From the NCBI GenBank assembly GCA_020249045.1, contig JADCGK010000015.1:4944-68943 (forward strand): a stretch of DNA of 64,000 bases, given 5' to 3'. This DNA is from Azospirillum sp. Its GTDB lineage: Bacteria; Pseudomonadota; Alphaproteobacteria; CACIAM-22H2. Below, piece after piece: positions 2,194 to 54,536 of the stretch (position 1 is the stretch's first letter; every line of letters begins with the position of its first letter). Position numbers and translations under genes: made by a program. The notes under the pieces were generated by a model. It searched no databases. It was given only the letters and a program-made list of their open reading frames with translations, and was not told the DNA's origin.

Positions 2194-2960
2194 CCGACGC
2201 CCCCGTCATCCGCGTGCGCGGCCTCGTCACGCGCTTCGGCGCCGCGACCATCCACGACGGGCTCGATCTCGACGTGCGCCGGGGCGAAATCCTGGCGATC
2301 GTCGGCGGGTCGGGCACCGGCAAGTCGGTTCTGTTGCGCACCATTCTGGGCTTGAAGGCGCCCGACGGCGGGACGGTCGAAGTGCTCGGCAAGCGTTTGG
2401 CCGATCTCGATCCCGACGCCCGCGCACCCGTCCTCAAACGCATGGGCGTGCTGTTCCAGGACGGCGCGCTGTTCAGCGCCATGACCGTGGCGCAGAACAT
2501 CCGACTGCCGTTCAACGAGCATACGCGCCTCGACCCCAAGCTGGTCGGCCAGCTGATCCGCGTCAAACTCGCGATGGTGGGGCTGCCGCAGGACGCCGGC
2601 GCGAAGCTTCCTTCCGAGCTTTCGGGCGGCATGCGCAAGCGCGCGGGCTTGGCGCGCGCCATCGCCCTCGACCCGGATGTGCTGTTCCTGGACGAACCGA
2701 CCGCCGGGCTCGATCCCATCGGCGCGGCGAAGTTCGATTCGCTCATCCGCGACCTGCAGCGCAGCCTTGCGCTCAGCGTCGTCATGATCACCCACGACGT
2801 CGACACGCTGGGCGCCATCGCCGACCGGGTCGCGGTCCTGCTCGACAAAAAAATGGTGGTCGGGACGCTGGACGAAATCCGCGCGCACCCGCATCCTTGG
2901 ATCCGGGAATACTTCTCCGGCCCGCGCGGACGCGCGGCGCTGGAAAGCCGGGGGCATTAA
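2190..2960 (+). CDS. mlaF: MlaF-like ABC transporter ATP-binding protein
   Basis: A Walker A (GGSGTGKS), ABC signature (LSGGMRKRAGLARA) and Walker B (LFLDEPTAGLD) are all present. The internal start MTDAPVIRV was chosen because the longer track ORF overlaps mlaE. Confidence 0.85.
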   Translation: MTDAPVIRVRGLVTRFGAATIHDGLDLDVRRGEILAIVGGSGTGKSVLLRTILGLKAPDGGTVEVLGKRLADLDPDARAPVLKRMGVLFQDGALFSAMTVAQNIRLPFNEHTRLDPKLVGQLIRVKLAMVGLPQDAGAKLPSELSGGMRKRAGLARAIALDPDVLFLDEPTAGLDPIGAAKFDSLIRDLQRSLALSVVMITHDVDTLGAIADRVAVLLDKKMVVGTLDEIRAHPHPWIREYFSGPRGRAALESRGH

Positions 2961-2963
2961 GTC

Positions 2964-3959
2964 GTGGAAACGCGGGCGAACCACTTCCTGGTCGGGCTGT
3001 TCGTGCTGACGCTGTTCGCCGCGATCGGGTTCGTCGGACTGTGGTTCGCGCGCGCCAATCTCGGCGAGGAGCGGACGGTCTTCCATACCTATTTCCGCGG
3101 CTCGGTCACGGGCCTGTCGATCGGATCGACCGTACGCTACCGCGGCGTGCCGGTCGGCACGGTCGCCGACATCGAGATCGATCCGGCGAACGTCGAACGC
3201 ATCCGGGTCACGCTCGCCTTGCGGCGGGGCACGCCGGTGAAGACCGACACCGTCGCCTCCCTGCAGCCGCAGGGCATCACGGGGTTGTCGTTCGTCGAAC
3301 TCAACGGCGGCACCCAAGCGGCCCCCGTGCGCGTGCCCGAACCAGGACAGGATTTCGCGCAGATCCCCTCGATCCCCTCGCCCATCGAACGCCTGCTCGC
3401 CGATGCGCCCGAAGCGATGGCGCGCGTTGGCGTGCTGGTCGAACGGATCGCGAGTCTTCTCAACGACGACAATCTGCGCAACATCGACCGCCTGATCGAC
3501 GGCGCCGCCGACGCGACGGTGCATTTGGCGCGGACGCTCGTGCATGTCGAAAAACTGACCGACGACGCGGGCGGCACGCTCCGGGGCGTGGACCGCACGG
3601 TCGCCGAAACGGGCCGCCTGATCGCCGAAGCCCGCGGCGCGCTCGACCGCGTCGCGACGCAAACCGAGGGGTTGATCGGCGACGCGCGGCCCCTGGCCCC
3701 GCAGGCCCAAGCGGCGGTCGGCGATCTGCGCCGCACGCTGGGCGGCTTCGGGCAGGTCGCCGACGAGCTTCAGAAGCTCCTGGCGACCGCCCGGCCGGGC
3801 CTGCAGGATTTCGGCCAGCAGGGCGTCTACGACCTGCAGCAATTCATGATCGAAGGCCGCACGCTGATGGTCACGCTCAACCGCGTCCTGATGAATTTCG
3901 AACGCGATCCCGCGCGTTTCCTGTTCGGCGACCAAACCCGCGGCGTGGAGGCGAAATGA
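2964..3959 (+). CDS. mlaD: MlaD / MCE-family substrate-binding protein
   Basis: An N-terminal TM helix is followed by an MCE domain (…VTGLSIGSTVRYRGVPVGTVADIEIDP…), directly after mlaF. Confidence 0.85.
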   Translation: METRANHFLVGLFVLTLFAAIGFVGLWFARANLGEERTVFHTYFRGSVTGLSIGSTVRYRGVPVGTVADIEIDPANVERIRVTLALRRGTPVKTDTVASLQPQGITGLSFVELNGGTQAAPVRVPEPGQDFAQIPSIPSPIERLLADAPEAMARVGVLVERIASLLNDDNLRNIDRLIDGAADATVHLARTLVHVEKLTDDAGGTLRGVDRTVAETGRLIAEARGALDRVATQTEGLIGDARPLAPQAQAAVGDLRRTLGGFGQVADELQKLLATARPGLQDFGQQGVYDLQQFMIEGRTLMVTLNRVLMNFERDPARFLFGDQTRGVEAK

Positions 3960-4585
3960 CCCGGCACGGCCCCACCCGGCGCGCATTCGTCCTGGGCGCT
4001 TGCGCCTCGCCGCTGGCCGCGTGTGCACTGCCCGGCGGCGGCGACCCGCCGCAGCTTTACACACTCACGCCAAAATCGACCTTCCCGCCCGATCTGCCCC
4101 AGGCGGACTGGCAACTCGCCGTCGAATTGCCGGTCGCCGCCGGCGGGCTCGACAGCGCGCGCATCGCGCTTCAGCGCACACCCGTGACGGTCGACTTCTT
4201 CGCCCGCGCCGCGTGGACCGACACGGTCCCGCGCATGGTCCAGACGTTGCTGATCGAAAGCTACGAGAACACCGGCCGGATCGTCGCCGTCAGCCGCGAC
4301 TCGGCCGCGTTGCGGCCGGATTATCTGCTGAAGGTCGATTTGCGCGAATTCCAGGCCGAATATTTCGAGCCCGGACCGCCGAAGGCCCATGTGCGCTTGT
4401 CCTTGCGCCTCGTGCGTATGCCCGAACGCACGATCCTGGCGAGTTTCACCCACGCCGAGCGCGTGACCGCCGCGCGCAACGAATTGCCCGCGATCGTCGC
4501 GGCGTTCGACGACGCCTTGGGCGTGACGATGCGCCGCTCGGTCGAATGGACGCTGCGCACCGGCCACGCCCAACGCCGCCGATAG
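3956..4585 (+). CDS. ABC-type transport auxiliary lipoprotein (PF03886-like) associated with the Mla/MCE system
   Basis: A lipobox follows the signal peptide (…SPLAACALPGGG…), and the ~200-aa size matches. The start overlaps the mlaD stop (ATGA), so it is an operon member. Confidence 0.7.
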   Translation: MTRHGPTRRAFVLGACASPLAACALPGGGDPPQLYTLTPKSTFPPDLPQADWQLAVELPVAAGGLDSARIALQRTPVTVDFFARAAWTDTVPRMVQTLLIESYENTGRIVAVSRDSAALRPDYLLKVDLREFQAEYFEPGPPKAHVRLSLRLVRMPERTILASFTHAERVTAARNELPAIVAAFDDALGVTMRRSVEWTLRTGHAQRRR

Positions 4586-4592
4586 CCGACCG

Positions 4593-4985
4593 TCAATCGC
4601 GCACGAGATCGCGGACGTCGTCCCCGTCGGCGGGCCATACGGCCCAATCGACCGGCCCCAGCCCGAACTTGTTGCGGTGGGAAACCGACGCACCCGCAGC
4701 CAGCAGCTTCTCCGCGCACGCGCGTCGGCCGCGCGCGGCGGCGTACATCAGGGCGGTGTTTCCGGCATCGTCGGTCGCGTCGGCGGACGCCCCGCGCGCG
4801 AGCAGCGCTTCGAGCGCGCGCGCCGAGCCTTTTTGCGCGGCGCGCATCAGCGGCGTGAGGCCGTAGGGCCCGCGCGCGTCGGCGGCACCCGGGGCGGGTC
4901 CGCCGCCCGCGGCGGCGTCGAGTGCGGCGGCGACGGCGGCGGGGTCGTCGGCTTCGGCCGCAAGGAAAAGGGGCGATCGGTTCAT
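4593..4985 (-). CDS. Ankyrin-repeat protein
   Basis: It contains repeat units GLTPLMRAAQKGSARALEALLARGASADATDDAGNTALMYAAARG typical of ANK repeats. Confidence 0.7.
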   Translation of the reverse strand: MNRSPLFLAAEADDPAAVAAALDAAAGGGPAPGAADARGPYGLTPLMRAAQKGSARALEALLARGASADATDDAGNTALMYAAARGRRACAEKLLAAGASVSHRNKFGLGPVDWAVWPADGDDVRDLVRD

Positions 4986-5049
4986 GACGCGTCAAACTGT
5001 TCGGGAAACGGGGCTTGCGTCAACCCCGATCTTGGCGTTTGCTCGCGCC

Positions 5050-5334
5050 ATGCCGACCTACGCCGAACGCATCCGCGCGAAGCTGGAGGCGGGCCTGGCG
5101 CCCGCCTCGCTCGATATCCTCGACGAATCCGCCAAGCATGCCGGGCATGCCGGCGCAGCACCGGGCGGGGAGACGCATTTCCGCGTGCGCATCGTGTCGG
5201 CGGCGTTCGCCGGCCAAGGTCGGGTCGACCGCCAGCGCAAGGTCTACGCCCTCCTGGCCGAGGAACTCGCCGAACGCGTTCACGCCTTGGCGCTCGAAAC
5301 CCGCACCCCCGAAGAAGCCGCGCGTTCGGCTTGA
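5050..5334 (+). CDS. BolA-family protein
   Basis: BolA hallmarks are present (…DESAKHAGHAG…ETHFRVRIVS..F.G…RQRKVYALL…). I chose the start at MPTYAERI; the track ORF starts at 4984. Confidence 0.7.
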   Translation: MPTYAERIRAKLEAGLAPASLDILDESAKHAGHAGAAPGGETHFRVRIVSAAFAGQGRVDRQRKVYALLAEELAERVHALALETRTPEEAARSA

Positions 5335-5431
5335 GCCGAGGCCCGAGGAACGCCACATGGCGCGGCGGGCGCGGTTGCGCACCCACAACTAATTTGTTAT
5401 CTAACTTCGGAATTATTCGCGAGGTTAGAAA

Positions 5432-5704
5432 TTGCACACGCGATCCGAGCCGCCCCGGAGCGTCAAGGTTCTCGGCCGGCGCACATCGATGCGCTTGGAA
5501 GGCGCCTATTGGGAGGCGCTGGAGGAGATCGCACGGCGCGAGGCGAGCGATCTGGAATACGTACTCGACCTCGCCGCAAGCGGGCCGCATCGGGGCAATC
5601 TAAGCTCCGCGATCCGGTTGTTCGTGCTTGCCTATTTCCGCGACAAGCGGCGATTGCCGCGCGGGCCGGCCCGACGTCGGGCCAATCATCGCGCGCCGGT
5701 GTAG
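5432..5704 (+). CDS. Ribbon-helix-helix (RHH_4-like) small protein
   Basis: …GRRTSMRLEGAYWEALEEIARREAS…LSSAIRLFVLAYFR matches the alphaproteobacterial RHH_4 family pattern. Its 3' end overlaps the convergent DUF2889 gene by ~19 nt. Confidence 0.55.
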   Translation: MHTRSEPPRSVKVLGRRTSMRLEGAYWEALEEIARREASDLEYVLDLAASGPHRGNLSSAIRLFVLAYFRDKRRLPRGPARRRANHRAPV

Positions 5705-6261
5705 AACTCCGGATAGCGATCGCGCACGACCTCGCCGTCGGTGGCGAGCGCGTGGCAGGCGTCGAGATGACCGGGCTTGCCGACGGATGCCCGCTTGCGT
5801 AGCGGCCCGATCGTTTGGATCGCCGTCGTGGCGAGCGCGCCGAGCGCGAGTTCGACCAGATGCGTGCAGCCTTTGGTGCCGCCCAAGCGCGCGAGGACGT
5901 CCTTGCGCCACCCCGGCCCGACGCGCAGACCCGCCAGCGCCGAAAAATCGGGCGCGATGTCCGGGCACGGCCGATAGGGCGTCGCGTAGCTCGCCGCGTG
6001 CGCGGCATGCACGACCAGATCGTCGTCGAGCGTCAGGCGCAAGCGCATGCCGTGCAGCGGCACGCCCGGCTCGATGCGCCCACGGAACGCGTTGTCGAAG
6101 CCATAGGCCTTGGTGTCGACCAATTCGCCTTCGATGTCCCACAGCCCGTCCGCCCGGCGATAGCCGTGGCACGCGATCGTGCGGGTATGCACGGGCTCTC
6201 GCGGGGCCGCAGGCGGCAAATCGGCGTGCGGCGTATCCTGGAAGGGCGTTGAAGCGGACAT
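5686..6261 (-). CDS. DUF2889-family protein
   Basis: A 191-aa ORF nested inside a longer track ORF (5686..6768), with the start at MSASTPFQD. The composition and conserved HxxH/Cys pattern are typical of DUF2889. Confidence 0.6.
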   Translation of the reverse strand: MSASTPFQDTPHADLPPAAPREPVHTRTIACHGYRRADGLWDIEGELVDTKAYGFDNAFRGRIEPGVPLHGMRLRLTLDDDLVVHAAHAASYATPYRPCPDIAPDFSALAGLRVGPGWRKDVLARLGGTKGCTHLVELALGALATTAIQTIGPLRKRASVGKPGHLDACHALATDGEVVRDRYPEFYTGAR

Positions 6262-6398
6262 AATGGAGCGTCTCCGGCGCGTGGCGCACCGAATGATCGC
6301 CCGCCGGGTACTTGGCGTCCAGCGGGCCGCCGCGAAGGTCGCGCCGGTTCCGGATTTCGCCGCACCCCGTGGGGCGCGGCGAAACGCCCGGCAGACCG

Positions 6399-6851
6399 TC
6401 AGTTCAGCCCGTAACCCGCACCGCCCGCAATGAACGCTTCGCGTTCCTTGAGGTTCTCCTCGAGCTCGCCCAACGCCGTCGCGTACAGGTCGCGCACCGA
6501 TACCATGCCGATCAGATCGGCACCGTCGACGACCGGCAAATGCCGGTAGCCGTGCTTGCGCATCATCTCCAGCGCCTCGCGCGCCGGTCGGCCCGGCGCG
6601 ATGGTATCGGGATTGCGGGTCATCGCGTCGGCAAGACGCACGGCATCCGGATCGCGTCCGGCGCCGACGACTTTGGTCATCACGTCGCGTTCGGTGAAGA
6701 TGCCCACCAACTTGTCGCCGTCCACGACCATCAGCGCGCCGATGCGCCGTTTTGCCATCAGCACGCAAGCTTCGCGGACGGTCATGGTGGCGGGGGCGGT
6801 CGCCAGCTCCTGGCGACCGGAAATCACGTCGGGAACGATGCGCCGATTCAT
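6399..6851 (-). CDS. CBS-domain protein
   Basis: It carries a tandem CBS pair (…IGALMVVDGDKLVGIFTERDV… and …HLPVVDGADLIGMVSVRDL…). Confidence 0.8.
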   Translation of the reverse strand: MNRRIVPDVISGRQELATAPATMTVREACVLMAKRRIGALMVVDGDKLVGIFTERDVMTKVVGAGRDPDAVRLADAMTRNPDTIAPGRPAREALEMMRKHGYRHLPVVDGADLIGMVSVRDLYATALGELEENLKEREAFIAGGAGYGLN

Positions 6852-6990
6852 GTTTCCTCCGATCCTGGCCGGGCGTCCGGCTTGGAAATGCGCCGCGCGG
6901 ATTTTTCCGTCGCGGGCGGCGGAACGCCGTCGTTTCGCATATTAAGCGCCCGCGCGGGCCCGTTTGGCAAGCGCCCGGCGCCCGGACCGG

Positions 6991-8340
6991 CTAGGCCGCG
7001 CGCTCGCCCGACGGAGCGGCCCGCGCCGCGTCCTTCGCCGTCGCGGTATCCTCGGCGACCGACACCCGCAACGTCGCGATCTGGTTGCGTTTGCGGCGCA
7101 ATATCTCGAAGCGCAATCCGTGGAAGACGAAGACCTGCCCCACTTCGGGGATCCGCCGCGCCTCGTACAGCACGAGGCCCGCGATGGTGGCCGCGGACTC
7201 GTCGGGCAGGCGCCAATCGAACTGCCGGTTGAGATCGCGGATCGTGACGTGGCCGTCGACGACCCAGCTGCCGTCCGTTTGCGCGCGCACGCCGGGCACG
7301 TTGAATTCGTGCCGTTCGGCGATGTCGCCGACGATCTCCTCGAGGATGTCCTCGAGCGTCACCACGCCCAGCAACGCCCCGTATTCGTCCACGACCAGCG
7401 CGAAATGCTCGCGCCGACGACGGAAGGCTTCGAGCTGGTCGAGCAGCGTCGTCGTGTCGGGGATGAACCACGGCCTTGCCGCGATCGCGGCGATGTCGAT
7501 CGCCGCGGGGTCGCCGGTGTTCGCGCGCACAGCCTGCAGCAGCGACTTCGCGTGCAATACGCCGATCACGTTGTCGGGCTGCCCGCGCCACAACGGAATG
7601 CGCGTATGCGGGCTCGACAATGCCTGCTCGATGATCGCTTCGACCGGCTGGCCCGCGTCGATGGCGACGACTTGGCGCCGGTGGACCAGGATGTCGGCGA
7701 CCGACACGTCGGCGAGGTCGAGGATGGAGCGCAGCATCTGCCGCTCCTTCCTGGCGCCGGCGTCCGATTGCACGGCGCCGTGCAGTTCGATGGCGCCTTT
7801 GAGTTCGTCGGCCGCGACGTCCGCCGGCCGGTCGCTCGGCCGCCAGCCGAGCACGCTGAGCATCCCCATCGCCGCCCAGCGCGTGGCCGTGGCCAGCGGC
7901 GAAAGCACCGACATCATCGCGCGCGCGAAGGGCGCGAGGCCGAGGGCCACGCGGTCCGCCCCGTTGAACGCCCAAACCTTGGGCATCACTTCGCCGAATA
8001 CGACGACCAGAACGGTCATGATTATCGTCGCATAGATCACGCCCGCGTCGCCGAAGAACGCGATCAGCACGCTCGTGGTCAGCGCCGAACCCAGGATGTT
8101 GACGAGATTGTTGCCCAGCAGGACGGCGGAGATGAATTGCTCGCTTTGTTCCTTCATGCGCAGCACGAGGCGCGCGCGCACGTTGCCCTGGCGTTCGAGC
8201 GCCGCCATACGCGGGCGCGAGGCCGAGGTGATCGAGGTTTCCACCGCCGACAACAGCGCCGCGAGCATCAGCAACGCCAGCACCACAGCCAGCACGAGCC
8301 AATCACCGCCGTCGATATCGCTCCACGTCAAGCCGCGCAC
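6991..8340 (-). CDS. HlyC/CorC-family transporter (DUF21 - CBS pair - CorC_HlyC)
   Basis: An N-terminal 4-TM DUF21 is followed by a CBS pair and a C-terminal transporter-associated domain. The architecture is classic TlyC/CorC. Confidence 0.85.
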   Translation of the reverse strand: MRGLTWSDIDGGDWLVLAVVLALLMLAALLSAVETSITSASRPRMAALERQGNVRARLVLRMKEQSEQFISAVLLGNNLVNILGSALTTSVLIAFFGDAGVIYATIIMTVLVVVFGEVMPKVWAFNGADRVALGLAPFARAMMSVLSPLATATRWAAMGMLSVLGWRPSDRPADVAADELKGAIELHGAVQSDAGARKERQMLRSILDLADVSVADILVHRRQVVAIDAGQPVEAIIEQALSSPHTRIPLWRGQPDNVIGVLHAKSLLQAVRANTGDPAAIDIAAIAARPWFIPDTTTLLDQLEAFRRRREHFALVVDEYGALLGVVTLEDILEEIVGDIAERHEFNVPGVRAQTDGSWVVDGHVTIRDLNRQFDWRLPDESAATIAGLVLYEARRIPEVGQVFVFHGLRFEILRRKRNQIATLRVSVAEDTATAKDAARAAPSGERAA

Positions 8341-10191: not shown

Positions 10192-10332
10192 ATGCGCAAG
10201 CCGCTTCTTCTCGTTTTGGCCCTATTGGTTTTGGCGGCGGCCGGATTCGCCGCCTTCCTCGCCACCTGGGAAATCCCAGCACCGACCGCGCGGATCGAAA
10301 AGGTCATTCCCAATGATCGCCTGCCGCGCTGA
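10192..10332 (+). CDS. Small hypothetical membrane peptide (46 aa). It overlaps, out of frame, the start of the next ORF.
   Basis: MRKPLLLVLALLVLAAAGFAAFLATW is a single TM helix, and the coding is uncertain. Confidence 0.25.
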   Translation: MRKPLLLVLALLVLAAAGFAAFLATWEIPAPTARIEKVIPNDRLPR

Positions 10333-12082
10333 TCGTTTTGCCGCGTTCGCACGGGCGGCCGCACTGGCCGTCGGTGTTGCGGCACCGGGCATCGCATGGG
10401 CGCAAGCGCCGCTGCGCTTGACCCCGCCGCCCGCGCGCGAGGCCCCGGCTCAACCGCCGGCGCCCGCGCGTCCCGAAGCACCCAGCGGGATCGAAGTCGA
10501 ACAGGTGCGCCCGCTCGATATGGGCGCGACCGGGCTTCTCGAACCCGATCGGGGCGGACTTCCCGCCGACGCGTGGGCCGGCACGGCGCGGCGCATCGCC
10601 GAACGCCTGGTGCGCGACTTGCCCGCACCGGTCGCCTCGCTGCCCGCGCGCGACATGGCGGTGCGGCTTTTGGCCTCGACGCTCGCCTCGCCCGCGGGCG
10701 AAGGCGAGGCGAACCTGACCGCGTTGCGCGCGCGCAAGCTCGGCGATCTCGGCGATCTCGCCGGGGCCGAGGCCTTGGCCGAACGGGTCCCCGCGCGCGA
10801 GGCCGATGGCCAACTCGCCCGCGCGCGGCTGGACGCGGCGTGGCTGGCCGGCCGCGACGAGGAAGCCTGCGCCCTGGCCCGCGACGCGCTGGCGCGCGAG
10901 CGCCATCCCGATTTCCAGAAGGCGCTGATGTTCTGCCAAGCGCTCGCGGGCGAACGCCAACGTGCGGAGATGGGCCTCGCCCTGCTGCGCGATCAGGGCG
11001 TGCCGGAGGATACGAACTTCGTCGCCTTGTTGCTCGCCCAGGGCGGCGACGGGCGCGGCGTGCGTCTGGACAACCCGCGCACGCTGACCCCGCTGGGGAT
11101 CGCGATGCTGCGCGGCGCCAAAGTGCCGCCGCCCGCCGATCTCGCGCAAAGCGATCGACCGGCGGTGCTGCTGGCGCTGCTGGCGAGCGCGGGGCTCGCG
11201 CCCGAGATCCGGTTGGCCGCCGCCGAACGCGCGGAAGCCTTCGGCGCATTCGGCGCGGAGGATCTCGCCAAGCTTTACGCCGAATTGCCGCTGACGCCGG
11301 CCCAGCTCGCCGATCCGGCCGCCTTCGCGCGTGCCGACGGCGGCCCGCGCGGGCGGGCGGCGCTGTTCCAAGCCGCGCAAGCCGCACAAGCGGGCGCGCG
11401 GCTCGAAGCACTGCGCCGGTTGTGGGCGCTGGGCCGCGAACGCGGCGGCTACGCCACGCTCGCGCGCGCAAGCTTGGGGGCGCTCGCCGAAATCGCGCCT
11501 TCGCCCGAACATGCTGCGTTCGCTCCGGACGCGGCGCGCGCCTTCCTGCTCGCCGGACGTATCGAGGATGCGCGCGAGTGGCTGCGTTTCGCGCGCGCGG
11601 CGCGCGTGGGCGGGGACCAAGCGGCCGAGGACCGGTATGCGGGGCTGTGGGCGCTCGCGGCGATCGCGGGGCTCGGCTGGTCGGATGCGGACGAACCGCG
11701 CGCCTTCCTTGCGTGGCGCGAGGCGACCATGCGGATCGACGCGCGCGGCGCGCCCGCGCGCGTGGCGCTGGCCGCGACGTTGCTCGCCGGACTCGGTCAT
11801 TTGCCGGCCGGCGGGGCGTTCGCCGCATTCCCCGAAACCGCGCCCGCGCGCGCGCAAGCGGCGTTGCCCCATCCGGCCGTGTGGACGGCCTTGCATCAAG
11901 CCGCCGTCGCGGGTCGAACGGCGGAAACGATAGCACTGGCCGCGCAAGCGTTGGGCACGGAAGGCCCGGCCGGTGCGGCGCCGCAGACGCTGCTCGCCGT
12001 TCTCGACGCGCTGCGCGCCGTGGGTCAGGACGGCGCCGCGCGCGCGCTGGCGCTGGAAGCGGCGATCGCCGCGGGGTTGTGA
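10313..12082 (+). CDS. Hypothetical Ala-rich secreted protein with helical (TPR-like) repeats
   Basis: It has a signal-peptide-like N-terminus (…AALAVGVAAPGIAWAQAP) and is 589 aa long. Its stop overlaps the xerD start by 1 nt (TGATG), which supports real coding despite low complexity. Confidence 0.5.
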   Translation: MIACRADRFAAFARAAALAVGVAAPGIAWAQAPLRLTPPPAREAPAQPPAPARPEAPSGIEVEQVRPLDMGATGLLEPDRGGLPADAWAGTARRIAERLVRDLPAPVASLPARDMAVRLLASTLASPAGEGEANLTALRARKLGDLGDLAGAEALAERVPAREADGQLARARLDAAWLAGRDEEACALARDALARERHPDFQKALMFCQALAGERQRAEMGLALLRDQGVPEDTNFVALLLAQGGDGRGVRLDNPRTLTPLGIAMLRGAKVPPPADLAQSDRPAVLLALLASAGLAPEIRLAAAERAEAFGAFGAEDLAKLYAELPLTPAQLADPAAFARADGGPRGRAALFQAAQAAQAGARLEALRRLWALGRERGGYATLARASLGALAEIAPSPEHAAFAPDAARAFLLAGRIEDAREWLRFARAARVGGDQAAEDRYAGLWALAAIAGLGWSDADEPRAFLAWREATMRIDARGAPARVALAATLLAGLGHLPAGGAFAAFPETAPARAQAALPHPAVWTALHQAAVAGRTAETIALAAQALGTEGPAGAAPQTLLAVLDALRAVGQDGAARALALEAAIAAGL

Positions 12083-13038
12083 TGGGCCGGCCCAAGACGG
12101 CGCCGGATCTGGTTTCCGTCCACGGCGAAGCGTTCCTGGAGATGCTTGTGGCCGAGCGCAACGCGTCGGCGCACACGCTGCGCGCCTATCGGGCGGACGT
12201 GGCGCACTACGAGGATTTCCTCGCCAAAAAGGGGACCGATGCCCCGCGCGCGGCCCCCGCGCACGCCAAGCTTTACATGGCCGCGATCGCGCGGGCCGGG
12301 CTGGCGCCGCGTTCGGCCGCGCGCCGGCTGTCGGCGCTGCGCCAATACCATCGCTTCCTGGTGGCCGAACGGCGCGCGAGCGTCGATCCGTTCGGTGGCG
12401 TCGACGCGCCGAAGATCGGCCGGCCATTGCCCAAAATCCTATCGGAGGGCGAGACCGAAGCGCTGATCGCCGCGGCACGCGCCGCCGGGGACGCCCGGCT
12501 CGTCTGCGCGCTCGAAGTGCTCTACGGCTCCGGGTTGCGGATTTCGGAACTCGCGGGCCTGAAGTTGTCGGCACTGTCGCGCGACGGGCGTTTCCTGATC
12601 GTGCGCGGCAAAGGCGCCAAGGAACGGTTGGTGCCGCTGTCGGGCCCCGCGCGCGACGCGCTCGCGGCATGGCGGGCGATCCGCGATGCGGCGCTCGCGC
12701 GGACCAAAAAGACCTCGCCTTTTCTGTTCCCCAGCCGCGCGGCGGCCGGCCACACCACCGAAGCGCGCTTCGCCCAGGAATTGAAGGCGCTCGCCCCGCG
12801 CGCGGGGATCGAACCCCGTCGGCTGTCCCCGCACGTGCTGCGCCACGCCTTCGCAAGCCATCTGGTCGATCGCGGCGCCGATTTGCGGGCGGTACAGGCG
12901 ATGCTGGGGCATTCGGACATCTCGACGACCCAGATTTACACCCATGTGGGCGGCGAACGGCTCAAACGCGTCGTCGCCGACCACCACCCGCTCGCCCGCG
13001 GCACCGCACCGCGCCCGGCGGCGCGTAAGCTGCCTTGA
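12082..13038 (+). CDS. xerD: Site-specific tyrosine recombinase XerD
   Basis: It carries the conserved catalytic residues R…HxxR…Y (…HVLRHAFASHLVDRGADLRAVQAMLGHSDISTTQIYTHV…). The length is 318 aa, and the chromosomal context is housekeeping. Confidence 0.9.
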   Translation: MGRPKTAPDLVSVHGEAFLEMLVAERNASAHTLRAYRADVAHYEDFLAKKGTDAPRAAPAHAKLYMAAIARAGLAPRSAARRLSALRQYHRFLVAERRASVDPFGGVDAPKIGRPLPKILSEGETEALIAAARAAGDARLVCALEVLYGSGLRISELAGLKLSALSRDGRFLIVRGKGAKERLVPLSGPARDALAAWRAIRDAALARTKKTSPFLFPSRAAAGHTTEARFAQELKALAPRAGIEPRRLSPHVLRHAFASHLVDRGADLRAVQAMLGHSDISTTQIYTHVGGERLKRVVADHHPLARGTAPRPAARKLP

Positions 13039-13100
13039 TCGGGGCCCGCGCCCCCGCTAAACCCACCTGTCGTTCTCGCTTGTCCCAAGGAAACGCCCCC

Positions 13101-15101
13101 ATGGCCGCCAAGAAGAAACCCGCCAAGAAAGCCCCCGCCAAAGCCCCCGCCAAGGCCAAAGCGAAACCGGCCAAAAAGGTCCCGGCCAAGAAGCCCGTCG
13201 CCAAGAAGCCCGCACCGAAGGCCGCCGCCAAGAAGGCGGCACCGAAAAAGGCGGCGCCCAAGCCCATCGCCAAAAAGCCGGCGCCGAAGCCCGCGCCGAA
13301 AAAGGTCGCGGCGAAGGCGATCGCCAAGCCCGTGCCGGCAAAGGCCCCCGCAAAAGCGCCCCCGAAGTCCGTTCCCGCGCCCGTCAAGGCCGCCCCCGCC
13401 AAAGTCGCCGCGGCGAAGCCCGCCCCGGCCCCGGTTCCCGCCAAACCCGCCGCGCCGCCGGCGCCGACGACGGTGAAGGGCCCGGGCGGCACGGTGCTGC
13501 CTGCCGGCGTCAAGCTCGACGCGGTCGTGAAGCCCGAGCATCTGCAGATCCTGACGCCCGAGGCGATCGCCTTCGTGGTCGAACTCGAGCGCAAATTCGG
13601 CGCCCGCCGCCGCGAATTGCTGGCCGCGCGCGCCGAGCGCCAAAAGCGCCTCGACGCGGGCGAGAAGCCCGACTTCCTGCCGCAGACGCGTTCGATCCGC
13701 GAAGGCGACTGGACCGTCGCGCCGTTGCCCAAGGACATCCTCGACCGCCGCGTTGAAATCACCGGTCCCGTGGACCGCAAGATGGTGATCAACGCGCTCA
13801 ATTCGGGCGCGAACGTGTTCATGGCCGATTTCGAGGACGCCTCGACCCCGACCTGGAACAATCTGATCGAAGGCCACGTCAATTTGCGCGACGCCAACGC
13901 CGGAACGATCGCGTTCGAGGATCCGAAATCGGGCAAGAGCTACAAGCTCAATCCCAAGCACGCGGTGCTGTTCGTGCGTCCGCGCGGCTGGGCGCTGCCC
14001 GAAAAGCACGTGATCGTCGACGGTCACCCGATGTCGGGTTCGCTGTTCGATTTCGGTCTCTATTTCTTCCACAACGTCAAACTCCGGCAGAAGAAGGGCA
14101 CGGCGCCCTATTTCTACCTGCCGAAGATGGAGAGCCATCTCGAAGCCCGGCTGTGGAACGACGTGTTCTGCCACGCGCAGGACGCGCTGGGCGTGAAGCG
14201 CGGCACGATCAAGGCGACCGTGCTGATCGAAACGCTGCTCGCCAGCTTCGAAATGGACGAGATCCTGTACGAGCTGCGCGAACATTCGGCCGGCCTGAAT
14301 TGCGGCCGCTGGGACTACATCTTCTCCTACATCAAGAAGCTCGCCGAGGACCCGCACGCCATGCTGCCCGACCGCGGGCAGGTGACGATGACCTCGCACT
14401 TCATGCGCTCGTATTCGCAGCTCGTGATCAAGACCTGCCACAAGCGCAACGTCCACGCGATGGGCGGCATGGCGGCGCAGATCCCGATCAAGGACGATCC
14501 GGCCGCCAACGAGGCCGCGATGGCCAAGGTCCGCACGGACAAGGAACGCGAAGCCAACGACGGTCACGACGGCACGTGGGTCGCCCATCCGGGCCTGGTG
14601 TCGATCGCCAAGGCGGTGTTCGACGAGAAGATGAAGGACGCCAACCAGATCGCACGCAAGCGCCAGGACGTGCACGTCACGGCCGCCGATCTGCTGCAAC
14701 CGGCCGCCGGCACGATGACCGAGGGCGGCTTGCGCCAGAACGTTTCGGTCGGCATCGGCTATCTGGAGGCGTGGCTGCGGGGCTTGGGCTGCGTGCCGCT
14801 GCACAACCTGATGGAGGACGCCGCGACGGCCGAAATCTCGCGCGCCCAGGTCTGGCAGCAATTGCGCCACGGGGCGACGCTCGACGACGGCCGCGCCGTC
14901 GACAGGGCCCTGGTGCGCAAGATCGTCGACGAGGAAATGGACAAGGTGAAGAAGGCGCAAGGCGCCGAACGCTTCGCCAAGGGCCGCTTCAAGGAAGCCT
15001 CGAAGATGTTCCTCGAAATGGTCGAGGCGGAGAAGTTCCCCGACTTCCTCACCCTGCCCGCCTACGATTGGGTGATCGCCAACGAATCGAAGATCGGCTG
15101 A
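13101..15101 (+). CDS. aceB: Malate synthase A with ~135-aa N-terminal Lys/Ala/Pro-repeat (histone H1/AlgP-like) extension
   Basis: The core aligns along its length to malate synthase A (…VEITGPVDRKMVINALNSGANVFMADFEDASTPTWNN…, …GLNCGRWDYIFSYIK…, …HDGTWVAHPGL…). The N-terminal extension MAAKKKPAKKAPAKAPAKAKAKPAKK… is in frame with no stop. An RBS (AAGGA) lies ~10 nt upstream of the ATG at 13101. Confidence 0.85.
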   Translation: MAAKKKPAKKAPAKAPAKAKAKPAKKVPAKKPVAKKPAPKAAAKKAAPKKAAPKPIAKKPAPKPAPKKVAAKAIAKPVPAKAPAKAPPKSVPAPVKAAPAKVAAAKPAPAPVPAKPAAPPAPTTVKGPGGTVLPAGVKLDAVVKPEHLQILTPEAIAFVVELERKFGARRRELLAARAERQKRLDAGEKPDFLPQTRSIREGDWTVAPLPKDILDRRVEITGPVDRKMVINALNSGANVFMADFEDASTPTWNNLIEGHVNLRDANAGTIAFEDPKSGKSYKLNPKHAVLFVRPRGWALPEKHVIVDGHPMSGSLFDFGLYFFHNVKLRQKKGTAPYFYLPKMESHLEARLWNDVFCHAQDALGVKRGTIKATVLIETLLASFEMDEILYELREHSAGLNCGRWDYIFSYIKKLAEDPHAMLPDRGQVTMTSHFMRSYSQLVIKTCHKRNVHAMGGMAAQIPIKDDPAANEAAMAKVRTDKEREANDGHDGTWVAHPGLVSIAKAVFDEKMKDANQIARKRQDVHVTAADLLQPAAGTMTEGGLRQNVSVGIGYLEAWLRGLGCVPLHNLMEDAATAEISRAQVWQQLRHGATLDDGRAVDRALVRKIVDEEMDKVKKAQGAERFAKGRFKEASKMFLEMVEAEKFPDFLTLPAYDWVIANESKIG

Positions 15102-15195
15102 CGCACGAAGCCCCCCTCGCCCTTCGACAGGCTCGGGGCGAGGGGGCGCTTTCCCAACATCACGGTGAGCTTGTCGAACCCCGAGGTTCGGCCCC

Positions 15196-16140
15196 ATGCC
15201 CGACACCGTCCCCGCCCGTCTGAACCGCACCGAGCTGGCCGTCCCGGCGAGCCGGCCCGAATTGTTCGCCAAGGCCGCACGCTCGGCGGCCGACGTCGTG
15301 TTCCTCGATCTCGAGGACGCCGTGGCGCCGTCCGACAAGGCCAAGGCGCGCAAGAACGCGATCGAGGGCCTCAACGACATCGATTGGCGCGGCGTGGGAA
15401 AAACCGTTTCGGTGCGGATCAACGGCGCCGACACCGAATGGATGTATCGCGACGTCGTCGACGTCGTCGAAAAGGCCGGATCGCGGCTCGACCTCATCAT
15501 GGTGCCGAAGGTGAGCCGGCGCGAGGACGTGCTGGCGCTCGACATGTGGCTTGCGCAGATCGAGCGGGCCAAGAAGATCCCCACGCCCATCGGCCTCGAA
15601 CTTCTGATCGAAACCGCGCAAGGCCTCGCCAACGTCGAAACTATCGCCTCGGCGAGCCCGCGCGTGGAAGCGCTGTTGCTGGGGTCGGGAGACCTCGCCG
15701 CATCGATGGGCATGCGCACGACGAATATCGGGGGACTGTCGGCCGCCTACGCGGTCGACGGCCGGCAGGCGGACATCTGGCACTACGCGCTCGCGCGCCT
15801 GGTCGTGGCCGCGCGGGCGGCCGGCAAGCGGCCCGTCGACGGCCCTTACGCCGACTTCAACGATCCCCAGGGCCTGAAGGAAGCAGCCGCCCGAGCCGCC
15901 GCACTGGGATGCGAGGGCAAGATGGTGATCCATCCCAGCCAGATCGCCCCGGTCAACGAAGCCTTCACCCCCGATCCGATGGAGATCGAGCGCGCCAAGG
16001 GCATTCTGCTGGCGCTGGAAGAGGCCGCCGAGCGCGGCCAGGGGGCCGCGACCTACGAGGGCCGGTTGGTGGACATCGCCTCGATCCGCCAAGCCCGGGT
16101 CGTGGTCGCCAAAGCCGAGCGCTTGCGGCAATGGTCGTAA
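15196..16140 (+). CDS. mcl: L-malyl-CoA/beta-methylmalyl-CoA lyase (HpcH/HpaI-CitE family)
   Basis: It resembles Mcl1-type lyases (…[36 protein letters not shown]…, …[19 protein letters not shown]…). Confidence 0.8.
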
Positions 16141-16204: not shown

Positions 16205-17158
16205 ATGACGCATTACCTGGATTTCGAAAAGCCCATCGCCGAGCTCGAAGGCAAGATCGAAGAGCTCAAGCGGCTGACGGGCGACGCGAATTTCAATATC
16301 GCCGACGAAGTCGCCAAGCTGCAAAGCAAGGTCGACAAGCAGGTGCGCGCGGCCTACGCCAAGCTCACGCCCTGGCAGAAGGTCCAGGTCGCCCGCCATC
16401 CCGAACGCCCGCATTTCGTCGACTACGCGGCCGGCCTGATCGAGGATTTCATGCCGCTGGCCGGCGACCGTCTGTTCGCCGACGACAAGGCGATCCAAGG
16501 CGGCATCGGCCGTTTCCGCGGCCGGTCGGTCGTCGTGATGGGTCACGAAAAGGGCTCCGACACCGAAAGCCGCATCCGGCACAATTTCGGCATGGCGCGG
16601 CCCGAGGGCTATCGCAAGGCCCAGCGCCTGATGGAACTCGCCGAACGCTTCAAACTGCCGGTCGTCGCCCTCGTCGATACCGCCGGCGCCTATCCCGGGA
16701 TCGACGCCGAGGCGCGCGGCCAGGCCGAGGCGATCGCGCGCGCCATCGAAATCTGCCTCAAGATCAAGGTGCCGTTCGTCGCCACGGTGATCGGCGAGGG
16801 CGGCTCGGGCGGGGCGATCGCCATCGCCGCGGCCAACCGCGTGCTGATGCTCGAGCACGCGATCTATTCGGTCATTTCGCCCGAAGGCTGCGCCTCGATC
16901 CTGTGGCGATCGGCCGAACATGCGCAGACGGCGGCCGACGCGCTGAAGCTGACGGCGCAGGATCTGTTCAAGCTCGGCGTCGTCGACCGCGTCGTGCCCG
17001 AACCGCTGGGCGGCGCGCATCGCGACCCGAAAAGCGCGGTTCTGGCGCTGGGCGACGCGCTGGAGGCCGCGCTCGGCGAACTCGACGGCCAGGACGGCGC
17101 GGCGCTGCGCGCGCGCCGGCGCGAGAAATTCGTCGAAATGGGCCGTAAGGGCCTGTGA
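16205..17158 (+). CDS. accA: Acetyl-CoA carboxylase carboxyltransferase subunit alpha
   Basis: AccA-like along its full length (…[37 protein letters not shown]…IGEGGSGGA…). Confidence 0.95.
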
Positions 17159-17168
17159 GCGCGTCCCC

Positions 17169-18149
17169 ATGACCGGCAGCGTGGATCTCGCGGCGCGCGT
17201 GCGCGCGGGCGATCGCCGGGCCTTGGCGCGCGCGATCACGCTGGTCGAGTCCACCCGCCCCGACCACCGCGGCGACGCCGAAAAACTGGTCGCCGCCGTG
17301 CTGCCGGATACCGGGCGCGCCGTGCGCGTGGGCATTTCCGGCCCGCCGGGCGCGGGCAAGTCGACCTTCATCGAGGCGTTCGGGCTTTTCCTGCTCGACC
17401 GCGGCCGCACGCCCGCCGTGCTCGCGGTCGATCCCTCCTCGCCCGTGTCCGGCGGTTCGATCCTCGGCGACAAAACGCGCATGGAAAGCCTGGCGCGCGA
17501 CGAACGCGCCTTCATCCGGCCCTCGCCCTCGGGCGGCACGTTGGGCGGGGTCGCGCGCCGCACGCGCGAAGCCGCCCTGGTGTGCGAGGCCGCCGGCTTC
17601 GACACCCTGCTGATCGAAACCGTCGGCGTCGGCCAATCGGAAACCGCCGTGGCCGAGATGGTCGATCTTTTCATGCTGCTGTTGCCGCCCGCCGGAGGCG
17701 ACGAACTGCAAGGCATCAAGAAGGGCATCGTCGAACTCGCCGATCTCGTCGTCATCAACAAGGACGATGGCGATCTGGCGCCGGCCGCGGGCCGCACGGC
17801 GGCCGAATACGCGGCCGCGTTGCACATGCTCCGGCCCGCTTCGGCCGCCTGGCATCCGCCCGTGTTGCGCGTGTCGGCTTTGCAGCGCCGGGGCATGGAC
17901 AAAGTCTGGTCGGCGATCGAGGCGCATCGCGCGGCGCTGGGCGTTGCGGGACTCGCGGCCAAACGGGCGGGACAAGCGCGTGCGGTCTTGTGGCGGGAAA
18001 TCGAGGAGGAGGTGCGCGGTCGGCTGGCCCGCCAAGCCCCCCTCGCCGACCTGCTGGAAACGATGGAAATCGAGATTTCGCAAGGGGTTACGAGCCCCGC
18101 CCAAGCTGCGCGCCGGATCGTCGACAGCCTTGCCAAAGCGGGCAGTTGA
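17169..18149 (+). CDS. meaB: Methylmalonyl-CoA mutase-associated GTPase MeaB (ArgK)
   Basis: A P-loop (GISGPPGAGKST) and the motifs …ETVGVGQSE… and …NKDD… of the G3E family MeaB. Confidence 0.9.
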   Translation: MTGSVDLAARVRAGDRRALARAITLVESTRPDHRGDAEKLVAAVLPDTGRAVRVGISGPPGAGKSTFIEAFGLFLLDRGRTPAVLAVDPSSPVSGGSILGDKTRMESLARDERAFIRPSPSGGTLGGVARRTREAALVCEAAGFDTLLIETVGVGQSETAVAEMVDLFMLLLPPAGGDELQGIKKGIVELADLVVINKDDGDLAPAAGRTAAEYAAALHMLRPASAAWHPPVLRVSALQRRGMDKVWSAIEAHRAALGVAGLAAKRAGQARAVLWREIEEEVRGRLARQAPLADLLETMEIEISQGVTSPAQAARRIVDSLAKAGS

Positions 18150-52921: not shown

Positions 52922-53107
52922 ATGATCCGCAATCTCGACGATTTCGACCGGCTCGCCCGTTTTCTGCTGGGCGCGGCGCTTCTCGCCAATGCGCTGCACA
53001 TGGACGGCACCGAGGGCTGGTGGGGCCTGCTCGGGGTCCTGCCGCTGATGTCGGCGATGGCGGGCTGGTGCCCGTTCGCCTCGCTCAGCGCGCGAAATGG
53101 GCCTTGA
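52922..53107 (+). CDS. DUF2892-family small membrane protein (YgaP-like)
   Basis: MIRNLDDFDRLARFLLGAALLANALHMDGTEGWWGLLGVLPLMSAMAGWCPFASL matches the DUF2892 pattern. Confidence 0.5.
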   Translation: MIRNLDDFDRLARFLLGAALLANALHMDGTEGWWGLLGVLPLMSAMAGWCPFASLSARNGP

Positions 53108-54536
53108 TGCGCGCGCGGATATTCGGATCGGGACAGGTGTAGCGCGCGCCGATCAAGCCGTCGGCGACGCGCATGATCTGCATTTCGACGTCGAACACCA
53201 GATTCAGATACGCGTTGCGCAAGATCACATTCCCCGGCACGCGCTGGCCCATCGCAAGATGCGCCGCCGGCCCGAACAACAGTCCCGTCTCGCTCCAGTT
53301 GCGCAGCGGCACGCGCTGGCCCATCACTTGGACGCGGTCTTCGGGGCCGGCGATCATGCGCGGGGAAATGCGCCGGTCGCCCGCTTGGGGCGTCGCGAAC
53401 AGGACGGCGGCCGCCTCCTTGAACCGCAGCCTCAGCGCCTCGGGAATGGCGGAGGCGGCGAATGCCTTGGCCGTCTCGGACAATTGCAGGGCCTTCTCGT
53501 CGGTCGCCAGGCCGACCGAATGGAACTCGTCGCGGAAATCGCGATAGGCGAGCCAATTGGCGATCGCGCCTTCGAGGCTGCGCCGCGCGCCGGGATCGTC
53601 GATCTCGGCGTGCAGCTGGAGCAGCAATAGCAGCTTGCGCGCCACACCCTGCTCGCGCGCGAGGATCGGATCGAGACTTTCCGGGGCGACCATGCGCGCG
53701 AAACGGCGCGACAGCTCGGCGCCGATCTCGGCGTCGTCGGCGAACAGCGCACGCGCCGCGATCCGCGCGCGCAAGCCGCGCGCCATTTTCATCTCGCCAC
53801 CGGGATCGCGCTTGGCGAACGAGGCGGGGCTGGCCAACGCCGCGCGCAGGCGTTCGCGCGCCGCTTGATGGAGCGCGGGCGACGGCCGGCCGGCGCGCGC
53901 CAGCGCCACGGTGCGCACGAAGGGCACCGTCTCGCCCAAGGCAGCTTCGTCCCCCGCCAGGGCCAGACACATCCGCGTCGTCGCCATCGCATTGTCGTAA
54001 CCGACGCCCAGCGCCGCCGCCGACGGCTCCATCAGCAGCAATTCCGCCATCGTCCGTTCGAGCAGCGCGAAGGCCGGGGCGGATTTGGCCTCGCGCATGA
54101 TCTGCACGCACAGCGTCGCCTTGGCCGCGAAATCCGGGCTCGTCGCAAGCCAGCCCGCCAGCAGCACGCCGGCCATCGCCGGGCCCGTCTCGCCGTCGGC
54201 GGCGGCCGCATCCAAGCGCACGGGATCGGGGGGCGTGTCGGGCGGCACGCGTTTGAGCGTCGTTTCCACGAGTTTCGTCGCCGCATCGGCGATCGCAATC
54301 AGGTCACGGACCCGTTCGGTGACGGGCGTCTTGACGGTCTTGCCCTGAAGCACGGCAAGGCGCTGGATGTACTCCTGATAGCGCGTGCCCGAGTTCAGAA
54401 GCTTGCGCTGCTCGCGCGGGTCGAAGACGAGTTCGGTCAGCGTAATCCGCACGGATTCGAGATACGGGCGGACGATCTGGAACAGCAGCGCGCGCGCGGG
54501 ATCAGCGAGCGCTTCGAGGGGGGTCGCACACAGCAT
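53085..54536 (-). CDS. PilZ-domain protein with large uncharacterised N-terminal region (putative c-di-GMP receptor)
   Basis: The C-terminal ~100 aa carry PilZ motifs (RRISPRM…, …DGLIGARYT…). The N-terminal ~380 aa are helical with no recognisable domain. Confidence 0.65.
   Translation of the reverse strand: MLCATPLEALADPARALLFQIVRPYLESVRITLTELVFDPREQRKLLNSGTRYQEYIQRLAVLQGKTVKTPVTERVRDLIAIADAATKLVETTLKRVPPDTPPDPVRLDAAAADGETGPAMAGVLLAGWLATSPDFAAKATLCVQIMREAKSAPAFALLERTMAELLLMEPSAAALGVGYDNAMATTRMCLALAGDEAALGETVPFVRTVALARAGRPSPALHQAARERLRAALASPASFAKRDPGGEMKMARGLRARIAARALFADDAEIGAELSRRFARMVAPESLDPILAREQGVARKLLLLLQLHAEIDDPGARRSLEGAIANWLAYRDFRDEFHSVGLATDEKALQLSETAKAFAASAIPEALRLRFKEAAAVLFATPQAGDRRISPRMIAGPEDRVQVMGQRVPLRNWSETGLLFGPAAHLAMGQRVPGNVILRNAYLNLVFDVEMQIMRVADGLIGARYTCPDPNIRARIKAHFAR

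Follow-up and report, generated by a model that had tools for sequence, protein, structure and literature searches.

A predicted polycationic N-terminal tail on malate synthase A in Tagaea-like Rhodospirillales

This work concerns a single gene in a 64,000-nucleotide stretch of Azospirillum sp. DNA (assembly GCA_020249045.1, contig JADCGK010000015.1, positions 4,944 to 68,943), hereafter called the window, to whose numbering all coordinates refer unless another locus is named. The gene, aceB, lies at 13101-15101 on the forward (+) strand and encodes a malate synthase A, the enzyme that turns acetyl-CoA and glyoxylate into malate and CoA, behind a predicted disordered N-terminal extension (the tail) of about 120 residues, dominated by lysine, alanine and proline (K/A/P). 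Polycationic tethering tails are known as a type; what is new here is that a tail of this type stands N-terminally on an enzyme of central metabolism and is conserved across a clade. Its composition, its evolutionary pattern and its analogy to the tails of AlgP, PhaF, PhaM, HupB and Ku are the grounds on which we propose a function: the tip of the tail would bind nucleoid DNA and/or polyphosphate, and possibly RNA, and a proline/alanine stalk would hold the active malate synthase off that surface. In our judgment this proposal has an even chance of being right. A literature search, incomplete in its coverage, found no paper linking malate synthase with such a tail, with granule proteomes or with nucleoid association.

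A complete malate synthase A behind a cationic tail

The gene is one open reading frame (ORF) of 666 codons, running from the ATG at 13101-13103 to the TGA at 15099-15101, and no stop separates the tail from the core, just as had been claimed in the original prediction of this fusion, made from the DNA letters alone. The good ribosome-binding site which that prediction had placed ahead of it can be read directly as the Shine-Dalgarno sequence AAGGA at 13087-13091 (+), 9 nt 5′ of the ATG. The protein starts with the conserved M-A-A-K-K-K-P-A-K-K, and nearly all tailed homologues start with MAA[KR]KK. A mechanical ORF list gives an upstream TTG, at 13035, as the start; this codon overlaps the stop of the preceding xerD gene (13036-13038) and lacks conservation, which leaves 13101 as the start to be considered. 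Long antisense or overlapping ORFs (e.g., 12936-15719 on the minus strand) were set aside as typical of DNA with 68% GC, the GC content of the host genome, and as lacking both codon-position signal and conservation.

The core is complete, as had also been predicted. The protein reaches 844.7 bits with the NCBIfam equivalog model TIGR01344 (malate_syn_A), for which the cutoff is 594.5 and of which positions 1-510 out of 511 fall on residues 150-658, and all three Pfam domains are in place on the plus strand: the N-terminal domain MS_N (PF20656, E=9e-19) at 13530-13691 (residues 144-197), the catalytic MS_TIM-barrel (PF01274, E=3e-118) at 13965-14699 (residues 289-533), and the C-terminal domain MS_C (PF20659, E=6e-42) at 14715-15068 (residues 539-656). 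Residues 141-656 align end to end, at about 60% identity, with residues 11-526 of the Bacillus anthracis enzyme (structure 3CUX), and an end-to-end alignment is likewise obtained with Escherichia coli AceB (3CUZ). In the alignment with these two structures R166, E250, D278 and D447 of AceB fall on R293, E377 and D405, in the barrel, and on D573, in MS_C, all four of which are invariant in a 39-sequence alignment (A1). We take R166 to be the catalytic arginine, E250 and D278 to be two Mg2+-binding carboxylates and D447 to be the catalytic base, roles reportedly established by Lohman and colleagues in 2008. The best Foldseek matches for the AlphaFold model of the core are again 3CUX (E=2e-56, TM-score 0.88 normalised to the target) and 3CUZ. 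The window protein thus shares its fold and the equivalents of these four residues with the canonical enzymes of E. coli and B. anthracis. It differs from them at the front, where the solved or typical malate synthase A begins 5-30 residues before the core and this one carries a long cationic tail instead. All the defining features of malate synthase A that lend themselves to testing are present; by sequence and by model the enzyme belongs to this family, with a core that appears intact and is presumably active.

The tail itself (residues 1-124, MAAKKKPAKKAPAKAPAKAKAKPAKK...PAAPPAPTT) holds 45 alanines, 36 lysines, 33 prolines and 10 valines, the first three making up 36%, 29% and 27% of its 124 residues, and has no Asp, Glu, aromatic residue or Cys. 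Its net charge is about +36 and its isoelectric point 11.5, that of the whole protein being 9.8. Tandem Repeats Finder detects degenerate tandem repeats in it, with periods of 12, 15 and 27 nt, i.e., 4, 5 and 9 codons. The lysines are not evenly spread, since from the tip towards the enzyme successive fifths of the tail hold 9, 10, 8, 5 and 3 of them. A distal high-charge half (13101-13325, residues 1-75; 27 lysines, about 0.36 charges per residue), which we propose as the polyanion-binding anchor, is accordingly followed by a proximal low-charge half rich in proline and alanine (13326-13472, residues 76-124; 9 lysines), which ends in PAAPPAPTT and is the putative spacer or stalk. Judged by this composition, the tail consists of a cationic tip carried by a stalk of Pro and Ala.

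An AlphaFold model built on a 39-sequence alignment gives residues 1 to about 110 a predicted confidence (pLDDT) of 35-48 and no secondary structure, and folds the core confidently. Between the two lies a clade-specific junction, VKGPGGTVLPAGVKLDA (13473-13523, residues ~124-141), which is conserved in all orthologues with a K-type (K/A/P) tail and seems to be part of the folded N-terminal domain: the model places β-strands at residues 124-126, 132-134 and 137-139, and the block has a pLDDT of 85-95. The length of about 135 residues that had been given for the tail is therefore slightly too high, as the predicted disorder ends near residues 110-124 and residues 124-139 are predicted to be folded. 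An interaction of the tail with its own enzyme was also considered. Tailed cores have a mean net charge of +0.9, against -3.0 in tail-less forms, so that they are no more acidic than the latter; folding of the tail back onto an acidic core was therefore rejected, and the near-neutral core offers the tail no obvious intramolecular partner.

Chance is a poor explanation of the tail. It is the only K/A/P-rich stretch within the window, and the 776 kb of related loci that were fetched have others only in orthologous aceB genes and in one stand-alone histone-H1-like ORF. The latter, found in Ferrovibrio xuzhouensis (locus L029, 8358-8696, +) some 2.7 kb downstream of a malate synthase A that has no tail, encodes 112 residues (MAKKKAAKKAAKTKKK...) with a Met/Pro/Ala-rich end.

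Translation of the tail

The tail is very probably part of the mature protein. GC content by codon position in the tail is 0.68/0.62/0.85, and the third-position value (GC3), predicted to be high, is indeed as high as in the core (0.895) and in neighbouring genes. Lysine, encoded by AAR codons, makes up 29% of the tail, although mutation in a genome of 68% GC is biased the other way. In all ten DNA loci examined, AAGGA, GAGGA or AGGAG stands 8-10 nt before the ATG of MAAKKK or MAARRK, and in all nine independent DNA loci the stretch from this conserved start to the conserved core is divisible by three and free of in-frame stops, for all its range of about 95 to 193 codons. The repeat periods of 12, 15 and 27 nt, too, keep the frame. 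Pairwise codon alignments show that tail differences among orthologues are concentrated at the third codon position; in the comparison with the orthologous locus L204, for instance, differences number 22, 15 and 50 at the three positions, and 36 of the codon changes are synonymous against 29 that are not.

That the region is a structured RNA leader and not coding sequence was considered and rejected, no Rfam family being found in 12800-13700. A promoter/terminator scan detected no promoter-like site, and three terminator-like matches on the minus strand inside the tail were dismissed, being fewer than expected from shuffled sequences.

Distribution and variation of the tail

The original prediction had left it to be checked whether orthologous enzymes carry the tail, and they do: a polycationic N-terminal extension is found in 64 of the 120 closest homologues, nearly all of them with the start motif given above. 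In a neighbour-joining tree of the core, the tailed proteins fall in clades apart from those without a tail, a large group of Reyranella and its relatives, and on this sequence evidence the tailed forms are one alphaproteobacterial clade of Tagaea-like Rhodospirillales, Tagaea (Rhodospirillaceae in the NCBI taxonomy) being the nearest named relative. The closest relatives, with at least 78% core identity (Tagaea sp., 'Telmatospirillum' and metagenome-assembled genomes (MAGs) of Rhodospirillales), have K/A/P tails. These K-type tails measure 118-213 residues up to core residue 141 and mostly have a terminal PPPPP run. More distant relatives, at about 65-75% identity, have shorter tails rich in Arg, Lys and Ala, where Arg partly replaces Lys and accounts for about half of the basic residues. 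A search of the core against 1.84 billion cluster representatives, of which the best 150 malate synthase A representatives were compared, found a polycationic extension only in the clade's own representative (P0121), the other N-terminal extensions among these 150 not being cationic.

With the structured junction removed, the 64 tails range from 31 to 197 residues and from +1 to +45 in net charge, and the two vary together (r = 0.90), which leaves an almost unchanging net charge density of 0.32 ± 0.07. Asp makes up 0.0% and Glu 0.2% of their residues, and Phe, Trp, Tyr and Cys are absent. The gradient from tip to stalk recurs as well: across the 21 K-type tails, the distal fifth has a charge density of 0.40 and the fifth next to the enzyme one of 0.13, with proline climbing from 0.15 to 0.41 in the same direction. 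Codon alignments of orthologues show a tail that evolves fast, with frequent insertions and deletions. By sequence and by model, the tail has kept its charge and its disorder and has gone on excluding acidic and hydrophobic residues, and has not kept its sequence.

The tail is systematically under-reported in public annotation. At least four NCBI entries appear tail-less (P0008, P0010 and P0022, at 536-542 residues, and P0111), whose DNA has an in-frame MAAKKK or MAARRK tail with a Shine-Dalgarno sequence upstream of the annotated internal start, and for one and the same gene, within one 90%-identity cluster, different pipelines give lengths of 544, 581 and 703 residues. Such trimmed starts leave too few tails of this type in reference protein sets and in the surveys of domain architecture drawn from them. 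Unannotated tails lie at 2647-3000 of locus L081, 2638-3000 of L082, 2518-3000 of L083 and ~3750-4090 of L006, where the records begin at an internal GTG or ATG and give proteins of 528-542 residues.

Another tailed enzyme comes from a record labelled MAG: Asaia bogorensis (CAMDLT010000011.1, locus L002), whose malate synthase has a K/A/P tail of 193 residues and lies downstream of xerD in a Tagaea-type locus. Its GC3 is lower, at about 0.62, and the species label looks doubtful.

Known cationic tails and the proposed function

Tails of similar make-up are known from several bacterial proteins. The domain of KPAA repeats in AlgP binds DNA, localises to polyphosphate granules and is needed to keep these evenly spaced (PMC9239181); PhaM has a PAKKA motif that is described as attaching granules of polyhydroxybutyrate (PHB) to the nucleoid (PMC11352279); the PAKKA tail of Mycobacterium smegmatis Ku modulates DNA binding (PMC3553676), and that of HupB is indispensable (PMC5676037). 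The domains of AlgP and PhaF (Pseudomonas), known or thought to bind DNA, are, like the present tail, disordered low-complexity sequences of Lys, Ala and Pro with repeats of 4-5 residues, and their charges are comparable (+55 for AlgP and +35 for PhaF, against +36 here). They differ in standing C-terminally on a small helical or phasin domain with a structural job, whereas the present tail stands N-terminally on a catalytic enzyme of 540 residues, and neither a Pfam search with the tail nor phmmer detects any sequence homology between them. PhaM of Ralstonia eutropha, mycobacterial Ku and HupB/MDP1 have short PAKKA/AKKA repeats with non-specific affinity for DNA and tether to the nucleoid (PMC11352279, PMC3553676, PMC5676037), and the many AKKPA/PAKKA-like units of the present tail resemble them. 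Those carriers, however, are DNA- or granule-associated themselves, whereas malate synthase is not known for any nucleic-acid function, and the low-charge Pro/Ala stalk beside the enzyme sets this tail further apart from theirs.

The original prediction had likened the tail to those of histone H1, AlgP and PhaF. This likeness holds for composition, repeats and disorder, the tail being dominated by Lys, Ala and Pro, built of short tandem repeats, devoid of Asp and Glu over its 124 residues and modelled with a pLDDT below 50, and fails at the level of sequence models. The histone-H1-like family HC2 (PF07382) is not matched by the tail alone at E<=10, nor by the full protein at E<=0.01; some orthologues (P0002, P0062, P0071 and others) do carry a precomputed PF07382 match. 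Membership of HC2 is, on these sequence comparisons, borderline and driven by composition, and we file the tail as an analogue of the H1-like K/A/P domains and not as a member.

The retention of charge and disorder, without retention of sequence, is the pattern expected of multivalent, non-specific electrostatic binding to polyanions. In the mechanism that we propose, the distal 70-75 lysine-dense residues (about 0.4 charges per residue) would bind polyanions multivalently and with no sequence specificity, nucleoid DNA and/or polyphosphate granules being the most probable targets and RNA a possible one. The proximal 50 or so Pro/Ala-rich residues would form an extended stalk, keeping the catalytic domain some nanometres from the surface, and a glyoxylate-removing enzyme would in this way be concentrated at a polyanionic structure rather than diffuse freely. 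The original prediction had likewise supposed that the tail binds polyanions and could place the enzyme at a granule or the nucleoid, a reading that we find plausible. Further points in its favour are the near-neutral core, which gives the tail no acidic surface of its own protein to settle on, the vertical inheritance of the tail at a fixed locus, and the other proteins with a MAAKKKxxKK-type start, most of which bind nucleic acids (SWIB, HC2, HU, LigD and DksA). An H1-like tail on a housekeeping enzyme, conserved across a deep clade, would extend the tethering principle to central carbon metabolism, and the tailed malate synthase offers a genetically tractable test of whether polycationic disordered tails place enzymes in the cell.

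Several points weigh against this proposal. Searched by itself, the tail finds no Pfam family even with the threshold at E<=10, and phmmer with the tail against a set of 5.8 billion proteins scored none among 8000 word-sharing candidates, a null result probably due to the composition correction of HMMER; the resemblance to H1 and AlgP is therefore one of composition only. The present sequence data do not discriminate between DNA, polyphosphate and RNA as target, and polyanion binding, localisation and any effect of the tail on catalysis or flux are proposed from composition, evolutionary pattern and analogy. Homologues are not phylogenetically independent, which limits what the counts across them can say, and protein-guided alignment of low-complexity sequence inflates apparent synonymous change in the codon-position comparison. 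Finally, if other proteins of this genome (of which 64 kb are covered here) should turn out to carry similar tails, the tail would be a habit of the lineage and not a peculiarity of this enzyme.

A more ambitious version of the proposed tethering can be put forward, which we consider quite unlikely as a whole. The clade may park its glyoxylate-consuming enzyme on the nucleoid surface or on the polyphosphate granule by means of the H1-like tail, creating a spatially organised site of C2 assimilation and glyoxylate detoxification whose occupancy could be tuned by charge, for example through polyphosphate levels in starvation or through lysine acylation that would track acetyl-CoA. If true, this would be an instance of bacterial central metabolism compartmented with no membrane, by way of a simple, deletable appendage encoded in the gene.

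Among the other explanations, the one that survives best, unlikely though we hold it to be, is that the tail is translated and has no targeting role, acting as an entropic bristle or as a solubility enhancer of a near-neutral enzyme, or as an A-rich, weakly structured 5′ region that aids initiation in a 68% GC genome. The share of AAA among Lys codons is 12 of 36 in the tail and 3 of 38 in the core, and the AAA codons of the tail are concentrated in about its first 30 codons (13101-13200); selection for weakly structured mRNA around the start, or slippage of the repeats, may be behind this. The fast evolution of the tail and its frequent insertions and deletions would also suit this explanation, as would the generic nature of its start. 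A scan of metagenome DNA for MAAKKKxxKK returned at least 120 loci (L084-L203), none of them a malate synthase among the matches listed. The ORFs among these matches that are long enough to be classified encode mostly SWIB, HC2, HU, LigD and DksA proteins, and a few enzymes (M18 aminopeptidase, peroxiredoxin, metallophosphoesterase). MAAKKK is thus a very common start of many unrelated ORFs, and the idea that it is a dedicated tag, comparable to a signal peptide, was dropped. N-terminally Lys-rich HU, SWIB, LigD and DksA do have the same kind of extension and the same start residues as the tail, and most of them act on DNA or RNA polymerase. Against a tail with no target, an initiation enhancer needs about 10 codons and not the 31-197 found here, and a pure bristle needs neither the near-total exclusion of acidic residues, nor a charge density that stays at about 0.32 over deep divergence, nor a gradient from tip to stalk.

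The same metagenome loci also hold, among those listed, dozens of ORFs of 11-30 codons that are almost wholly Lys/Ala (e.g., MAAKKKAKKKAKKKK), with identical peptides in unrelated samples; and Lys-rich low-complexity appendages are common in high-GC bacteria.

A tail aimed at some other target seems very unlikely to us. It could be directed at the surface of PHB granules, directly or over a nucleoid/PhaM-like bridge, at anionic membrane phospholipids, or at a condensate of partner enzymes, and glyoxylate from the adjacent lyase would be channelled to the synthase. A link to PHB granules formed part of the original prediction and finds no direct support. It would fit the position of aceB beside the gene of an Mcl1-type lyase and near meaB, genes associated with the ethylmalonyl-CoA route, and the occurrence of K/A/P tails in granule biology, exemplified by PhaF and PhaM (PMC9239181, PMC11352279). 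In both of these proteins, however, it is the K/A/P part that binds DNA and a separate domain that binds the granule, and the present protein has no phasin-like or amphipathic segment, nor any hydrophobic or aromatic residues in its tail for membrane insertion. The neighbouring lyase, for its part, has no tail, and some tailed genomes lack its gene at the locus, so that channelling between the two enzymes is not claimed.

Still further down, and in our view highly improbable, is a tail that serves as a regulatory handle, be it through lysine acylation, dependent on acetyl-CoA or acetyl-phosphate, that would neutralise the charge and release or re-partition the enzyme, or as an initiation site for regulated proteolysis. 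The 36 lysines, exposed on an enzyme that binds acetyl-CoA in a region modelled as disordered, invite the thought, as does the analogy to histone tails and to the tail of MDP1/HupB, which is post-translationally modified (PMC13639343). Against acetylation as the conserved function speaks the frequent substitution by Arg, which cannot be acetylated and, in the more distant clades, supplies about half of the basic residues. The sequence shows no sign of a protease tag, and the regulatory reading as a whole is pure speculation.

That the repeat region is untranslated, or only partly translated, with a start at the internal GTG of VKGPGG (13473) or with long and short isoforms both made, is hardly credible; an untranslated repeat region, with a start at an internal Met near residue ~150, was the outcome that the original prediction had named as fatal to it. 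The PGAP and JGI pipelines do call orthologues P0008, P0010, P0022, P0023 and P0111 at 536-544 residues, and the Val codon at the position of 13473 is GTG in eight of nine loci; yet GTG is the commonest Val codon, locus L002 uses another one, orthologue P0016 has Ile there, no Shine-Dalgarno sequence precedes either of the internal GTGs at 13473 and 13494, and an untranslated tail would leave unexplained why frame, start motif, Shine-Dalgarno sequence, high GC3 and Lys-rich composition are conserved over deep divergence.

Genomic surroundings

The upstream neighbour of aceB, at a distance of 62 nt, is the gene of a XerD-type tyrosine recombinase (12100-13038, +; PF02899 and PF00589), and xerD directly precedes every tailed aceB with enough flanking sequence. 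Downstream, after a gap of 94 nt, comes the gene of an L-malyl-CoA/β-methylmalyl-CoA lyase of the Mcl1 type (15196-16140, +; HpcH_HpaI), which matches structures 5UGR (1e-96) and 4L9Y (1e-95) and on which the haloarchaeal and RipC models of NCBIfam score below their cutoffs; this gene (mcl) is syntenic in most tailed loci. Then follow accA (16205-17158; NCBIfam) and meaB (17169-18149; Pfam), together at 16205-18149 (+) and also identified by synteny. Wherever the flanks suffice, tailed aceB genes share one order, aroB-aroK-(unknown of ~600 residues)-xerD-aceB-(mcl)-accA-meaB-rpmB, and this includes the R/K-type tails of loci L006, L207 and L208, whose core identity is about 70%. The arrangement xerD-aceB-(mcl)-accA-meaB occurs in none of about 70 tail-less loci. 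The simplest history would be that an aceB already residing at this locus gained the tail once, in ancient times, and that vertical descent has long retained it.

Mcl1-type lyase and meaB are associated with the ethylmalonyl-CoA route, which shares intermediates with PHB metabolism. As the lyase releases or consumes glyoxylate, the locus seems to be concerned with glyoxylate handling. General scans of the window ORFs turned up none of ccr, ecm, mcd and mch, at which no search was specifically aimed. The surroundings of the tail-less Reyranella-type aceB are of another kind: in loci L007, L021 and L005 (~2500-8100) it adjoins the gene of a urate oxidase (Urate_ox_N) or of a xanthine/uracil permease, with an AMP-binding, acyl-CoA-ligase-like gene and a ketopantoate-reductase-like gene also nearby. 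This suggests that the Reyranella-type enzyme handles glyoxylate from purine breakdown, unlike the context of the tailed one.

The DNA just downstream of tailed aceB genes is a site of variable insertions, seen at 4730-5306 of L081, 4615-5307 of L082, 11976-12671 of L204 and 6901-11292 of L207. Some bring in a DUF1223 gene or a HigB/helix-turn-helix toxin-antitoxin pair; another is an island of 4.5 kb that encodes an Mrr-type restriction enzyme together with a toxin-antitoxin pair of the RES-Xre kind.

Between aroK and xerD, the window has an ORF of 589 residues rich in Ala, Leu and Arg (10313-12082, +), with no Pfam match. Products of 585-635 residues, likewise with no Pfam match, occupy the same place in L204, L207, L208, L081 and L082, and judging by these sequences it appears to be a conserved protein of unassigned function. 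Elsewhere in the window, an ORF of 483 residues on the minus strand (53085-54536) has the codon-position GC of a gene and a translation of 482 residues with no Pfam match at E<=1e-5. For the rest, the window is an ordinary segment of alphaproteobacterial chromosome, with a CcrM-type methylase, TrcR, accA, rpmB, pntB and an AcrB pump.

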